From the NCBI GenBank assembly GCA_020631995.1, contig JACKGJ010000002.1:154773-218772 (forward strand): 64,000 nt of DNA, in the 5' to 3' direction. The stretch's first letter is position 1; each line of letters begins with the position of its first letter. Source of the DNA: Candidatus Nomurabacteria bacterium. Lineage in GTDB: Bacteria > Patescibacteriota > Minisyncoccia > Phycocordibacterales > UBA918. Positions 36,813-40,454 of the stretch are shown piece by piece. Made by a program: the position numbers and the translations under genes. A model generated the notes under the pieces. It was given only the letters and a program-made list of their open reading frames with translations. It was not told the origin of the DNA and made no database searches.

Positions 36813-38366
36813 CTAGCTTCTAGATTTTGGTGTCACCCAAAAGCCCATATAGCGCCCGAACATTAGTCTAGTCTGAGCATCTAGTCCTGGAATAGAACTA
36901 AACACTATCATAGTGATCGGCACCAATATCCACTGCAACGCCATTACCACATAAGCAAAGCGGGACCTTCCTTCAGGACGTTTTGGAATTAGTGAAAGAG
37001 AGATCACTGCAGAGATAACTAGTCCAAACATTGCCAAGATCAGAAGATTTCTAACTACGATAGGCAAATTATATGATAACACCGTTTCGTGAAAGACTCG
37101 ACCACCAAGGAAGATGGGTGCCCAACCAAGTATAAAGAGCATTATTGGGTTGGTAACGAGAGACCAGTATCCTTCAGCCTGTTGTAGAGTAATCTTTATT
37201 CTCTTGCCGAGTGGGATGTTCTTGTTTTTTGTGAAGTGATAGACAATGTATACAAAGTTTTCTACTCCGTAGGTCCAGCGACGATGTTGTTTGTAGATGT
37301 TTTTTATTGTGCCATAAAGAGTTCCCGCCGTATTGGCATCCATTGAGACTGGATAAGAAAGCGGAATAACATCATATTCACCATCATTTGCCATCATTAA
37401 GTTCCAGTAAATACGTGAATCTTCACTCACCATATTGCGTTGCCAGTACCCTACTTCATAAAGTGCCTTAAAAGGTACAGAGTGTGAAGAAAAAGTCGCC
37501 ATTCTTTCTGGGCGTTCTTGTTGAACCATTTCCCAGAAAGTACTAGACATAGCTACCACACGAGATAATGAGCCAGCCTGCCAAAGGTTGTTGTTAAAAA
37601 GAGGGACTGGTTGGTAAGAACTCTTCAGAGGATTCTCGGCCGTCATAAAATGCCAGATTAGACAATTGAAGTAATCTGGATAAAGGACTGTATCTATATC
37701 AAAGTTAGATACTAAAACATTTTCATATGGAATATTTCTAGCGTCCAGAATTACCTTACGACCTTCTTCGACAGCATAAGCCACATTCGAGCCTTTGCCT
37801 GCCATTTCGCCTGGTACATTGGCAGGGTGAATAGTAACCAAAAAGTCGGCAAATTCACTACCGTATTGTTCTTTCAATTCTTTAGCTATGGCTTGTGCAC
37901 CAGCTCCCGCTCGCTCTTCAGACGCCAAAATGACACTAATCTTTTTCTTGTCGTAGTGCACTTGAGACAAAGACTCAATGGTAGAGCGAGCCACTTCAAT
38001 AGGTTCATTATAAAACGGAAACACCACGATATGGTGCATATGGTCATATTGAAAGCGCTCAAGCATCTCAGACCAGTTTAAAGTCATATGGTGACGCAGA
38101 CGTCTCCAGTTGTGTCGAAGGTGATACGAAAGAAAGGCAGTCTTAAGTACCCAGTAGATTGCAAAAGCAATAATGAAATATGCCGCCAAAAATGGTGCAT
38201 AAAGGGAGGCAACTACCACACCTATTAAAGTGCTCCAAGAGGCAAGACCAGGAATAACCTCTAATAAGCGGTAGAGGGCCCGATTTTTGCCACTGAGCTC
38301 TGTGGCACGACCTACATGGAAGTCAGGCCTTTTAGCGTACGGTAATAGGTGTTTGTTTTCCTCCAT
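36813..38366 (-). CDS. integral-membrane family-2 glycosyltransferase (processive, QxxRW type)
   Basis: FPFYNEP, SNFDIDT and the KQHRRWTYG (QxxRW) motif, with multiple TM segments at both ends. Start is uncertain: TTG at 38408 in the track, ATG at 38366 here. Confidence 0.75.
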   Translation of the reverse strand: MEENKHLLPYAKRPDFHVGRATELSGKNRALYRLLEVIPGLASWSTLIGVVVASLYAPFLAAYFIIAFAIYWVLKTAFLSYHLRHNWRRLRHHMTLNWSEMLERFQYDHMHHIVVFPFYNEPIEVARSTIESLSQVHYDKKKISVILASEERAGAGAQAIAKELKEQYGSEFADFLVTIHPANVPGEMAGKGSNVAYAVEEGRKVILDARNIPYENVLVSNFDIDTVLYPDYFNCLIWHFMTAENPLKSSYQPVPLFNNNLWQAGSLSRVVAMSSTFWEMVQQERPERMATFSSHSVPFKALYEVGYWQRNMVSEDSRIYWNLMMANDGEYDVIPLSYPVSMDANTAGTLYGTIKNIYKQHRRWTYGVENFVYIVYHFTKNKNIPLGKRIKITLQQAEGYWSLVTNPIMLFILGWAPIFLGGRVFHETVLSYNLPIVVRNLLILAMFGLVISAVISLSLIPKRPEGRSRFAYVVMALQWILVPITMIVFSSIPGLDAQTRLMFGRYMGFWVTPKSRS

Positions 38367-38453
38367 AGATATCAACGGGAGTATAGACCGAATATCTAGT
38401 TTATGCAAAGTATTTGTTAGTTTGTATAGTCTATTATAAAGTTACTTATCCGA

Positions 38454-38482
38454 TTAGAACTAATAGAAATATGTGGTATATT
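38454..38482 (+). promoter_or_regulatory. promoter of tRNA-Thr
   Basis: TTAGAA, 17 nt, TATATT, with an extended -10 TG (TGGTATATT). The tRNA 5' end lies about 11 nt after the -10 element. Confidence 0.5.
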
Positions 38483-38493
38483 ATGTGACGTAA

Positions 38494-38569
38494 GCCGAGG
38501 TAGCTCAGTTGGTAGAGCAGCCGATTTGTAATCGGCCGGTCGCAGGTTCAAACCCTGTCCTCGGCTCCA
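38494..38569 (+). tRNA. tRNA-Thr (anticodon UGU), CCA encoded
   Basis: Manual cloverleaf: acceptor GCCGAGG/CCTCGGC; D arm GCTC-AGTTGGTA-GAGC; anticodon arm GCCGA-TTTGTAA-TCGGC; variable loop CGGTC; T arm GCAGG-TTCAAAC-CCTGT; discriminator T; CCA. Confidence 0.9.
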
Positions 38570-38577
38570 GTAGCAAT

Positions 38578-39399
38578 ATGACGAATAAAGATTTTTATTC
38601 AACAAAATCATATCGACATAAGCAGAGCGAAGCAACAAAGAAGCAATGGCAAACAGGCATTTACGACAATCAACGTAATCGTGAATCCAGATCATGTCGA
38701 AGAGTAGATTGTAATAATTGTTTTGAAGTTAAGGCTTCAAATCCAAAAAAATACTGCTCACAACATTGTGCTGCGGTAGTTAATAACAGTAAGCGAGTTT
38801 TTTCACAAGTAACGAAGGAAAAAATATCTAAAGCCTTGGCCGGAAGAACCTATCCAGAGAGAAAGTTTATTAATGCACTGGGGAAAGAACGAGAATATCG
38901 AGTTTGCCTAAATCCAGACTGTAGAAAAGAATTCTTTACTACATATTGGAGACCTTCAAATAATCCGACGCGGTACTGTAGCGTGCAGTGCTCAAGTCAT
39001 GTGAATGGAAGTAAACCCACTTCTCCCAGGGCAGCAAGAGCTAAGGCTGGTGTTCGACCTGATATTGATAAGAAAATTTATTTCTTTAGTCGATGGGAAG
39101 CGAATTATGCGCGAGTTTTAAATCTAACCGGCATAAAATGGATACATCAGCCAAAGCGATTTAGACTTAAATCGCAGTACTACACTCCAGATTTTTATTT
39201 ACCAGAGAGTGATAAATATATTGAGATAAAAAATTTTCTTTCTGACTACTCTTTAAAGAGAGACAAAGAGTTTAGGGAATTATATCCAAAGCTTGAACTG
39301 GAGCTTGTTCTAAAAGAGGACTATAAAAAACTTGAGGAAGAATTCGCAAACGTAATTCCTAATTGGGAGTTTAGTAATTCAAAGTGGACAGGTAAATGA
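38578..39399 (+). CDS. homing-endonuclease-like protein: NUMOD3-like motifs, two YCSxxC zinc ribbons and a C-terminal PD-(D/E)XK nuclease domain
   Basis: ATG lies 8 nt after the tRNA CCA; the track start inside the tRNA is rejected. Motifs seen: SEATKKQWQTG and TKEKISKALAGRT (NUMOD3-like); CRRVDCNNCF...KYCSQHC and CLNPDCRKEF...RYCSVQC; SRWEANYARVLNLTGIKWIHQPKRF...YTPDFYL...YIEIK (PD..ExK, TnsA-N-like layout). Confidence 0.65.
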   Translation: MTNKDFYSTKSYRHKQSEATKKQWQTGIYDNQRNRESRSCRRVDCNNCFEVKASNPKKYCSQHCAAVVNNSKRVFSQVTKEKISKALAGRTYPERKFINALGKEREYRVCLNPDCRKEFFTTYWRPSNNPTRYCSVQCSSHVNGSKPTSPRAARAKAGVRPDIDKKIYFFSRWEANYARVLNLTGIKWIHQPKRFRLKSQYYTPDFYLPESDKYIEIKNFLSDYSLKRDKEFRELYPKLELELVLKEDYKKLEEEFANVIPNWEFSNSKWTGK

Positions 39400-39406
39400 A
39401 TATTAC

Positions 39407-39826
39407 TCAATCATTCATCGACCGTTCCTTCCTATCCTCCTTTTCTTCATCCGACAATGCCGTCGATTTCTTGTGCTCGGCAATGTGATGGAGGTGATTT
39501 TCGCTATCACTGCTTACCACCTTCGCAATAATTTTATTTTTGTGACGTAGATTGTTGAGACGTCTTTCCAAGAAATTAATTATAAAAAGAGAGGCGCTAA
39601 GTCCTTGATGTAGGAGGTAGTGCAAAAACAATCTAAAAGAAGAAGCGCCAAAGTACTTTTTCCAAACTCTCCAGCCCTGCCCCCTTTTCTCAATCTGTAG
39701 ATCCAAATATTTACGGAAATTTACTAGGAAAATTCTCTTTCCTTTTGCCGCTTCGGCTTTGTAGATAAAAAAGAGTATAAGGGATAGAACCCCGCTTACT
39801 GCCATTATGTAAAGAGAAATTAGCAT
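39407..39826 (-). CDS. hypothetical membrane protein
   Basis: Two hydrophobic segments and a charged C-terminus. I recognise no family. Start is uncertain: the track uses TTG at 39850; ATGs occur at 39826 and 39805. Confidence 0.45.
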   Translation of the reverse strand: MLISLYIMAVSGVLSLILFFIYKAEAAKGKRIFLVNFRKYLDLQIEKRGQGWRVWKKYFGASSFRLFLHYLLHQGLSASLFIINFLERRLNNLRHKNKIIAKVVSSDSENHLHHIAEHKKSTALSDEEKEDRKERSMND

Positions 39827-39869
39827 AGGTGGGAGTATAGCACGAAGCAATTTGTAGGTTTTACAGGCC

Positions 39870-40454
39870 TTATTTCACCGAGACTCGCTTGAACTCAACG
39901 ATAGAAACCTTTTCGCCAAACTTCTGAATTGCTCCGTTAATCATTTCACCAATAGTGGTGTCTGGATTTTTGATGAAAGGTTGCTCAAGCAAAATTTGTT
40001 CCTTGAAGTAGTTATTCAACTTCCCTTCCATTATTTTTTCTTGCATTTCTGCCGGTTTGTCTTTGATGTCTTCTGCAAAAACTTCCTTGGCCTTAAGCAT
40101 TGCTTCCTCACTCACCTCATCTCTTGAAAGAAACTTTGGATTAAGAGCTGCTACATGCATAGCAACATCCTTAGCTAAAGTAGCAAATTCCTCATTCTTT
40201 GAAACAAAGTCAGTCTCAGAAGCCAGTAAAACCATAGCGGCTACTTCGTTGGTATTGTGTACGTATACACCAACTGTGCCAGCTCCCAGGGTGCGGTCAG
40301 ACTTTTTGTCAGCTGCTTCTTTACGCTTCTGCTTAAGAATTATTAAAGCCTTCTCCTTGTCACCTTGTGCTTCTTCCAGTGCCTTCTTACATTGCATTAC
40401 TGAAATACCTGTTTGATCTCGTAATTCTTTGATAACTGATGAGCTAATTTCCAT
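39870..40454 (-). CDS. tsf: elongation factor Ts (short form)
   Basis: 194 aa. N-terminal UBA-like segment VIKELRDQTGISVMQCKKALEEAQGDKEKA. Lies downstream of rpsB, as in the canonical rpsB-tsf pair. Confidence 0.92.
   Translation of the reverse strand: MEISSSVIKELRDQTGISVMQCKKALEEAQGDKEKALIILKQKRKEAADKKSDRTLGAGTVGVYVHNTNEVAAMVLLASETDFVSKNEEFATLAKDVAMHVAALNPKFLSRDEVSEEAMLKAKEVFAEDIKDKPAEMQEKIMEGKLNNYFKEQILLEQPFIKNPDTTIGEMINGAIQKFGEKVSIVEFKRVSVK

Follow-up and report, generated by a model that had tools for sequence, protein, structure and literature searches.

T4 SegB is a free-standing homing endonuclease of the GIY-YIG type, encoded in the tRNA gene cluster of phage T4 and akin to the other Seg and Mob enzymes. 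Such enzymes are thought to cut the allele that lacks the nuclease and to be copied in with co-conversion of the flanks, the carrier allele being protected by its sequence differences. In synthetic Cleave-and-Rescue (ClvR) drives, a nuclease that eliminates wild-type copies of an essential gene is linked to a re-coded copy that resists cleavage. Here we describe a gene that resembles both. It lies in a 64,000-nucleotide stretch from a Candidatus Nomurabacteria bacterium (contig JACKGJ010000002.1, positions 154,773 to 218,772; 'the window' hereafter means this whole stretch), directly behind the gene for tRNA-Thr(UGU), and encodes a nuclease of the PD-(D/E)XK class. On the sequence evidence, we consider it rather likely that the product is a free-standing homing endonuclease of a new type: it would cut wild-type tRNA-Thr genes and spread with a resistant tRNA-Thr allele, the pair forming a two-gene selfish cassette. 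A homing endonuclease of modular make-up was also what the original prediction, made from the letters of the window, had proposed, and this is supported by the architecture, the site specificity, the empty sites, the decay of copies, a transferred tract between loci L004 and L005 and relatives in inteins.

The likeness to SegB and the other Seg and Mob enzymes lies in a free-standing nuclease gene beside tRNA genes and in the putative mode of spread. Our locus differs in having a T7-endonuclease-I-type PD-(D/E)XK enzyme, in occupying Patescibacteria chromosomes, in its attachment to one particular tRNA and in the visible re-coding of an essential tRNA. Like ClvR, it links a nuclease to a re-coded copy of an essential gene, with cleavage here a step that we infer; the differences are that the case is natural and bacterial, that the nuclease is protein-guided and that the target would be replaced at its own locus. 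In having small DNA-binding modules (NUMOD3 and zinc) that a linker connects to a distinct nuclease domain, the protein recalls the I-TevI-type enzymes, but its nuclease lies at the C-terminal end, the reverse of their order, and is of PD-(D/E)XK rather than GIY-YIG or HNH type, and NUMOD3 reaches Pfam's score in some members only.

Two homing endonuclease families with the restriction fold have been described, I-Ssp6803I (PF11645) and the Vsr-like I-Bth0305I/EDxHD (PMC3424549, PMC6083498). The first shares with our nuclease the PD-(D/E)XK fold and a tRNA gene as target (a tRNA-fMet intron), and the second shares the fold and the layout, with the DNA-binding region at the N-terminal side and the nuclease at the C-terminal. 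However, there is no sequence-family match to either; the window nuclease groups with Phage_endo_I and Bax1 and is free-standing rather than intron-encoded. Its best sequence and fold matches are T7 endonuclease I (gp3) and archaeal Bax1, with which the E, D and E-x-K residues align, but the T7 enzyme is a structure-selective resolvase of 149 residues without sequence-reading modules and Bax1 partners with the XPB helicase. F-CphI of cyanophage S-PM2, which has a T4 Endo VII motif, is a precedent for a junction-resolvase domain acting as a free-standing homing endonuclease (PMC6083498), although it has the Endo VII/His-Me resolvase fold, a phage host and psbA as its target. The homing families named are LAGLIDADG, HNH, GIY-YIG, His-Cys box, PD-(D/E)XK (I-Ssp6803I), EDxHD and the Endo VII-type F-CphI, and Phage_endo_I is described in the open-access literature as a resolvase only (PMC3424549, PMC6083498, PMC7765530). 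In open-access text we found nothing on this family, on a tRNA-Thr-linked nuclease of Patescibacteria or on T7-endonuclease-I-type intein endonucleases.

We found that the family is attached to a single tRNA gene. In species-representative genomes it occurs at 62 loci in 62 assemblies, from at least a dozen candidate orders. At 60 of these loci the gene directly upstream, in the same orientation, is tRNA-Thr(UGU); the other two are cut at that point by the contig end. None of 18 distant homologues adjoins tRNA-Thr(UGU). Each genome has one copy, and a search for paralogues, which the original prediction had suggested, found none in the window. The gene is also rare: among 5.8 billion proteins, 222 relatives of the window nuclease were retrieved, against 3572 matches in the same database for the EF-Ts of one clade. 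The 120 relatives listed are all near full length with 48–82% identity, and among them every organism-named match is from Patescibacteria. An exhaustive profile search gave 24 representative clusters at E <= 1e-30 and a wider superfamily of 2568 at E <= 1e-10, proteins of 220–350 residues that join a zinc-ribbon/NUMOD3 part to an endonuclease-I part. We rejected a phage or plasmid origin of the family, as searches of IMG/VR and GenBank phages returned only distant relatives of the nuclease domain (30–45% identity) and no true member.

The tRNA-Thr(UGU) genes beside the nuclease differ from those that stand without it. The variable loop reads AGGTC at 19 of 24 nuclease-less loci but in none of 63 nuclease-linked tRNAs (Fisher p = 6e-15); the linked loops are 3–4 nucleotides (nt) long, 6–8 nt long or substituted, as in the CGGTC of the window. 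Of nine tRNA-Thr(GGU) genes at these loci, eight are canonical. The carrier L013 and the gene-free loci L243–L254 (individual loci are denoted by L numbers) have EF-Ts proteins that are 83–86% identical, and their tRNA-Thr(UGU) genes differ at 19–24 of 72 positions. By contrast, the tRNA of L013 is 89–93% identical to the linked tRNAs of L009, L010, L047 and L062, hosts with EF-Ts identities of 36–63%, whereas the wild-type tRNA of L243 is 81–89% identical to nuclease-less tRNAs of other hosts whose EF-Ts is 33–46% identical to that of L013. Similarly, the window shares 72% EF-Ts identity and 64% tRNA-Thr(UGU) identity with L162, which has no gene, versus 47% and 97% with the carrier L001. For hosts with an EF-Ts identity of at least 70%, the median tRNA identity was 0.69 in pairs of a carrier and a non-carrier and 0.84 in pairs of non-carriers. 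These comparisons indicate that the linked alleles sort by gene presence rather than by host and that this is not an effect of lineage. Linked and nuclease-less tRNAs alike keep the identity pairs of the acceptor stem, U73 and the anticodon loop unchanged, so the variants should still work as tRNA-Thr. The tRNA that adjoins the nuclease would be part of the element, a claim that goes with the cassette as a whole and that we hold to be probable to the same degree.

Two further observations concern these alleles. T-loop position 55 is not T in 17 of 63 linked tRNAs, compared with 1 of 24 nuclease-less ones (p = 0.02), and the linked tRNAs of L028, L041 and L043 have an odd T loop, ATCATGC. Within one host clade, with EF-Ts about 70% or more identical to that of L013 and mostly above 80%, tRNA-Thr(UGU) occurs in three or more widely differing alleles, among them the wild type and two carrier types, grouped as L013, L017 and L249; L023, L026 and L060; and L243–L254. 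The coexistence of three alleles in this clade suggests more than one invasion.

Absence of the gene from the tRNA-Thr loci of relatives, which the original prediction had proposed looking for, proved to be common. We seeded a metagenome scan with EF-Ts rather than with the nuclease, and 16 loci retained tsf–tRNA-Thr(UGU) synteny; the nuclease gene was present at none of these 16, and no nuclease remnants were seen at 80 metagenome loci. Seven EF-Ts proteins 83–88% identical to that of L013 led to eight further tRNA-containing loci, again with no intact nuclease gene at any of the eight. Altogether 0 of 24 EF-Ts-selected loci carrying the tRNA had an intact gene (upper 95% bound 12%). Several empty loci share their downstream genes with occupied ones (L166 with L045, L051 and L028; L173 and L169 with L031, L039, L042, L048 and L050), so the difference between empty and occupied loci is a clean insertion or deletion of about 0.85 kb directly after the tRNA, and at several loci the inserted segment is the open reading frame (ORF) alone. 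The original prediction had also taken universal synteny with tRNA-Thr as an argument against mobility, and this argument fails: the gene adjoins the tRNA in 60 of 62 carriers, yet all 24 EF-Ts-selected relatives are without an intact copy. Because syntenic relatives lack an intact copy, the synteny reflects site specificity, not immobility.

Copies of the gene decay as well. In-frame stops, frameshifts or deletions interrupt eight of the 62 (13%). L249 has a carrier-type tRNA, with two differences from that of L013, and no intact nuclease; an 85-nt remnant of the 3' end (2600–2684) lies behind an unrelated PaaX_M/Cas2-like ORF of 188 residues (1937–2503), which occupies the place of the deleted part. 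Among relatives without the nuclease, L162 is closest to the window (EF-Ts 72%); it has the same inverted tRNA and the same GT2 gene, with an ABC transporter gene in place of the nuclease. This shared inversion means either that it predates the difference in gene presence or that the gene was lost in L162. Many contigs of the host clade of L013, those of L245, L246, L247 and L251, stop a few hundred nt past tRNA-Thr, where comparison of L013 and L243 suggests the start of an rRNA operon; the same-position blocks of these two loci are 93–96% identical. Assemblies may therefore under-sample the locus, which would bias estimates of prevalence.

A recent exchange is recorded at L004 and L005. Their DNA is 82–97% identical over about 1.3 kb, a stretch that begins at tRNA-Tyr and ends about 150 nt beyond the nuclease stop, and the flanks are 35–70% identical. 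For the nuclease, the proportion of synonymous differences (pS) is 0.43 and the non-synonymous divergence (dN) 0.06, compared with saturated pS of 0.76–0.86 and dN of 0.20–0.37 for rpsB, tsf and c4, the small membrane-protein gene upstream of the tRNA. These values point clearly to a recent horizontal exchange of the tRNA–nuclease tract, of a kind that resembles co-conversion. L005 (CAYGEA010000060.1) is labelled 'uncultured Bdellovibrionales' yet has the Patescibacteria-type block of rpsB, tsf, membrane protein, tRNA-Thr and nuclease, and is probably mis-binned. By contrast, the pair formed by the window and L241 is vertical, as the synonymous divergence (dS) of the nuclease (0.82) equals that of the neighbouring genes. 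EF-Ts and the GT2 protein are 96% and 96.5% identical in this pair, and the nuclease is only 82% identical; its dN/dS of 0.135 denotes purifying selection, compared with 0.024–0.049 for the neighbours. The gene is functional but three to five times less constrained than its neighbours. Over host pairs, the ratio of nuclease dN to the dN of rpsB and tsf ranges 16-fold. At long range the nuclease is more conserved than S2 and EF-Ts (52% versus 40%), which may be due either to horizontal transfer or to a constrained core on which changes are saturated, and we do not rely on it.

In the window, tRNA-Thr(UGU) is the sole tRNA gene found by ARAGORN, and the locus has the following features.

38474–38482, + strand: extended −10 promoter element TGgTATATT, which should drive the tRNA and, in the window, the nuclease ORF.
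38494–38569, + strand: tRNA-Thr(UGU) with encoded CCA (ARAGORN), the nuclease-linked variant allele.
38537–38541, + strand: variable loop CGGTC (wild type AGGTC), which may be the change that confers resistance and may form part of the nuclease target.
38570–38577, + strand: 8-nt spacer GTAGCAAT; promoter, terminator and Shine-Dalgarno site all absent.
38578–39399, + strand: nuclease ORF, 273 residues plus stop (H6788_02550).
38605–38652, + strand: N-terminal helix, residues 10–25, SYRHKQSEATKKQWQT; a helix in the AlphaFold model with W24 invariant, NUMOD3-like by eye only and without a Pfam match.
38689–38793, + strand: Cys4 zinc ribbon 1 (C40, C45, C60, C64) and helix; invariant cysteines, AlphaFold.
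38797–38850, + strand: NUMOD3-like helix, residues 74–91, TKEKISKALAGRT; Pfam NUMOD3 at E = 0.056, below the cut-off.
38893–39009, + strand: Cys4 zinc ribbon 2 (C110, C115, C134, C138); invariant cysteines, AlphaFold.
39010–39063, + strand: conserved basic linker KPTSPRAARAKAGVRPDI, predicted to be disordered; invariant residues, and model confidence (predicted local distance difference test, pLDDT) below 50 at residues 146–155.
39064–39345, + strand: PD-(D/E)XK nuclease of the T7 endonuclease I/Bax1 type with E174, D205, E216 and K218; PHROG, PDB and Foldseek.

The first in-frame ATG, at 38578, lies 8 nt past the CCA. A mechanical ORF call reaches back to a TTG within the tRNA gene, and we set the start at 38578 because all homologues begin M..KDFY. 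The product matches exactly the hypothetical protein H6788_02550 that NCBI lists for a Candidatus Nomurabacteria metagenome-assembled genome. As had been predicted, the ORF has no promoter or Shine-Dalgarno site of its own: the spacer contains no GGAGG-like motif, a two-hexamer scan found no sigma-70-like site in the gap between tRNA and ORF, and a scan of this gap, the ORF and the flanks (38300–39900) found no terminator. The extended −10 element upstream of the tRNA, which ends 11 nt before it, was read by eye; the two-hexamer scan missed it because there is no −35. The predicted co-transcription with tRNA-Thr therefore holds for the window, since neither a promoter nor a terminator separates the two genes.

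The surroundings are ordinary, in keeping with the earlier description of a gene alone among housekeeping genes. Upstream, on the − strand, lie genes for a GT2-family membrane protein and a PEGA-like protein; downstream, also on the − strand, are a small membrane-protein gene and then tsf, rpsB and prfA. The 19-nt 3' end of the tRNA has no second copy in the window when three mismatches are allowed, no direct or inverted repeats flank the tRNA–nuclease pair, and no integrase is among the genes near the nuclease, so the locus is, as predicted, not a classical tRNA-integrated island. In the family the usual order is prfA–rpmE–rpsB–tsf–(small membrane protein)–tRNA-Thr(UGU)–nuclease–(variable), with the tRNA–nuclease pair inverted in place in the window, L241, L001, L004, L005 and L037. 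In some genomes the nuclease gene lies within a Tyr/Thr/Thr/Trp tRNA cluster; at L003 it starts 1 nt past the preceding tRNA, with the end of its stop codon 9 nt ahead of the following one. At L019, L032, L044, L049 and L053, ORFs matching LAGLIDADG_1 (Pfam 5.7e-18) are found downstream of the nuclease gene, apparently in the rRNA operon, with tRNA-Ile(GAU) nearby at L019, L032 and L044. Several loci thus have two different homing-type genes within a few kb.

Expression varies over the family more than the window alone suggests. The gap from tRNA to ATG is below 20 nt at 25 of 54 loci, reaching −1 where ATG and CCA overlap, and 20–81 nt at the other 29. At 23 of these 29 long-gap loci, a −10 hexamer ends 6–10 nt before the ATG, compared with 3% of random positions, and 20 of the 23 hexamers have a TG extension; at several family loci a terminator-like hairpin follows the tRNA. 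The nuclease mRNA is thus predicted to be leaderless, or nearly so, throughout the family. In the window it would be transcribed from the tRNA promoter and released by 3' processing of the tRNA, whereas many relatives would make a leaderless mRNA from their own extended −10. We considered shared transcription as the cause of the tRNA linkage and rejected it, because many relatives with a terminator after the tRNA and a leaderless promoter of their own remain adjacent.

The protein has the modular make-up of a homing enzyme, with two corrections to the original prediction. The two Cys modules that it described stand: in an alignment of 25 homologues, on which all calls of invariant residues rest, all eight cysteines are invariant, in modules of the form C-x4-C...C-S-x2-C. 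AlphaFold (mean pLDDT 79.8) models an N-terminal helix (residues 10–25), two modules of zinc ribbon and helix (about 35–72 and 107–143), a NUMOD3-like helix between the ribbons (77–87), a disordered linker (146–155, pLDDT <50) and a compact nuclease (164–255, pLDDT >90). In the first module, a hairpin (35–52) and a helix (62–72) have a pLDDT of about 90, and zf-CGNR matches were found in 9 of the 25 members. The second of the two predicted NUMOD3-like helices corresponds to a sub-threshold match to NUMOD3 (PF07460; residues 74–91, 13.8 bits against a cut-off of 20.4, E = 0.056), and the first was not detected by Pfam. NUMOD3 matches occur in 7 of the 25 members (best E 6.7e-7), and several database members have a precomputed PF07460. 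In the linker, with the consensus RPTSPKAARGKAGIR at residues 145–160, P147, S149, P150, A152, R154, A157, G158, R160 and D162 are invariant.

The nuclease domain is of the T7 endonuclease I/Bax1 type, as sequence and fold searches agree. Profile searches and structure prediction placed it in the PD-(D/E)XK fold, so the restriction-endonuclease-type core foreseen by the original prediction is borne out; the TnsA_N assignment is not. Its catalytic residues E174 (SRWEAN), D205 (YTPDFYLP) and E216-x-K218 (IEIKN) are invariant and align to E20, D55, E65 and K67 of T7 endonuclease I (motifs SGLE, YTPDF and ETK). PHROG 9019 'Holliday junction resolvase' matches the domain at 2.8e-13, the PDB sequences 6p66_B and 1m0d_A match with catalytic motifs aligned, and the best Foldseek matches were 1m0d, 2pfj, 8gy8 and 6p4w, with probability 1.0; 3r3p_B (I-Bth0305I/EDxHD type) was matched at probability 0.99, a likeness at the level of fold only. 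For Phage_endo_I (PF05367), the window protein scores 17.6 bits (E = 0.0031), under the gathering score of 29.1; 11 of the 25 members match at E <= 0.01 (best 1e-4), and the more distant relatives P0141 and P0148 pass the cut-off with 36–44 bits. We rejected a TnsA-like nuclease, since the window protein has no Pfam match to TnsA_N (PF08722) even at E <= 10 and both sequence and fold point to T7 endonuclease I and Bax1; TnsA_N was matched only by the archaeal distant homologue L073, together with Phage_endo_I. There is also no Pfam match of the window protein to I-Ssp6803I (PF11645) or EDxHD.

Relatives of the nuclease occur in places typical of homing enzymes. In P0234 and in the Acidimicrobiaceae loci L071 (2534–6127) and L072 (1415–6313), DnaE (Pol III alpha) contains an intein, located at about residues 650–1033 in L072, where it spans Cys1 to HN|S. 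The internal domain of the inteins is 36% identical to the window protein across linker and nuclease (E = 3e-23 for P0234), and the basic linker is retained. Between its splicing blocks, the L072 intein has a zinc ribbon, NUMOD3-like helices and a T7-endonuclease-I-type nuclease, with no LAGLIDADG or HNH domain. In an IMG/VR phage contig (L150, 3653–4276), an ORF of 207 residues joins a C2H2 zinc finger to a T7-endonuclease-I-type domain within an array of 21 tRNAs and ends 6 nt before tRNA-Asn, a position that resembles that of T4 SegB. In another phage group, a homologue of 281 residues adjoins genes for nucleotide metabolism and DNA polymerase. At L079 (121–690), from an uncultured bacterium, a distant homologue abuts tRNA-Asn and tRNA-Glu, its stop codon overlapping the first 3 nt of tRNA-Asn; with this placement, the superfamily has become associated with tRNA genes more than once.

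These data can be drawn together in the following mechanism. The enzyme, probably a dimer by analogy with T7 endonuclease I, would recognize the conserved wild-type tRNA-Thr(UGU) gene at a target that includes the variable loop AGGTC and would make a double-strand break in or near that gene. Repair from incoming cassette DNA, taken up for example by transformation, would copy in the nuclease gene and co-convert the resident tRNA to the donor's allele, which would resist cleavage and still function. Such an arrangement would be a natural cleave-and-rescue system on an essential gene. Homing of this kind accounts for the positional specificity, the empty sites, the rarity, the pseudogenes and the remnant, the transferred tract, the tRNAs that disagree with their hosts and the intein relatives.

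Several observations weigh against it. The identity of the nuclease tracks that of the host (Spearman 0.51, versus 0.58 for the control of S2 against EF-Ts), and inheritance seems to be mostly vertical, with one clean recent transfer found; transfers must then be occasional or occur mostly among relatives. AGGTT is found in 12 of 63 linked tRNAs and also at 2 of 24 empty sites, and the linked alleles of L045 and L051 look locally derived, with a single change in the variable loop. The tRNA groups follow the nuclease clades weakly (residual test p = 3e-6, not significant for hosts below 50% identity), so co-conversion tracts, if such they are, must vary in length, and a global comparison of tRNA identity with that of the nuclease or the host (Spearman about 0.10) is uninformative. 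The empty sites are few (24) and were sampled via EF-Ts. All data come from metagenome-assembled genomes or contigs, and carriers may have a second tRNA-Thr(UGU) copy elsewhere. Finally, the target, the cut site and the choice of DNA over RNA as substrate are all deduced from sequence.

Other explanations can be given for parts of these data. The most credible, although we consider it unlikely, is that of an ordinary or domesticated host nuclease, such as a Holliday-junction resolvase or repair enzyme, inherited vertically from the ancestor of Paceibacteria-type lineages with many losses and borrowing a tRNA promoter. A domain closest to junction resolvases, the correlation with host identity, the single copy per genome and, for the window and L241, a dS equal to that of the neighbours and a dN/dS that indicates purifying selection would all fit such an enzyme. 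A host enzyme should, however, be neither so rare overall nor missing from all 24 EF-Ts-selected syntenic loci, and 13% of its copies should not be pseudogenes; nor does a housekeeping role explain the replaced tRNA allele in carriers, the L004/L005 tract, the relatives in inteins or why a gene with its own promoter at 23 of 29 long-gap loci, often behind a tRNA terminator, never leaves the tRNA. Next in credibility, and likewise improbable, is a tRNA–nuclease block moved by ordinary homologous recombination after DNA uptake, with the nuclease a passenger or directed at another target and the variant tRNAs neutral hitch-hikers. Cassette-like co-occurrence is what we see, while we infer the cutting of the tRNA gene itself, and the loose coupling of tRNA groups and nuclease clades also suits passive movement. 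Such movement leaves unexplained why the gene is found nowhere else (60 of 62) and why the universally conserved AGGTC loop is never retained beside it and is altered in many ways; the architecture and the intein relatives, moreover, are those of site-specific homing enzymes.

It is also conceivable, but very improbable, that the system acts on RNA as a toxin and antidote, the nuclease cleaving wild-type tRNA-Thr(UGU), which resembles a four-way junction, and the variant tRNA serving as resistant antidote. In its favour, the linked tRNAs show systematic changes in both the variable loop and the T loop, T7-endonuclease-I-type enzymes are structure-selective and some PD-(D/E)XK enzymes act on RNA (PMC3424549). 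The closest relatives by sequence and fold are nevertheless DNA enzymes, and homing enzymes use NUMOD3 and zinc ribbons to bind DNA. DNA must also be the substrate of the intein relatives, and for the variant to stand in the chromosome exactly where the resident gene stood, an event at the DNA level is required. Least probable of all, and hardly to be expected, is that the gene is left over from a genomic island integrated at the tRNA or acts as a defence nuclease on its own: although the 3' ends of tRNA genes are classic integration sites, the window has no integrase, duplicated tRNA 3' end or flanking repeat, and the insertion is the ORF alone at several loci. For defence there are weak PADLOC matches (best E = 2e-3, 15 bits), which cover the PD-(D/E)XK core only and are far below significance for membership.

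We therefore favour homing, with the reserve already expressed. If it holds, the enzyme belongs to a catalytic family with no earlier link to homing, sits on a cellular chromosome and is coupled to the re-coding of an essential tRNA. We see about an even chance that the fuller claim is right, namely that a previously undescribed family of homing endonucleases has arisen on the T7-endonuclease-I resolvase fold, in free-standing form, in DnaE inteins and in phage tRNA arrays, and that in Patescibacteria it acts as a natural cleave-and-rescue drive that has repeatedly overwritten the essential tRNA-Thr(UGU) gene across orders. Should cleavage be confirmed, a resolvase-type PD-(D/E)XK family would join the six or seven recognized homing families and offer new modular nucleases with long targets for engineering. 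It would also be a rare example of a homing gene that stands free on cellular chromosomes instead of residing in a phage, intron or intein, and would mean that a selfish nuclease can drive the replacement and re-coding of an essential tRNA gene. For the Patescibacteria, it would explain the sharp conflict between tRNA-Thr(UGU) and host phylogeny in some lineages and would provide a natural marker of recombination and DNA uptake among these uncultured, ultrasmall bacteria.

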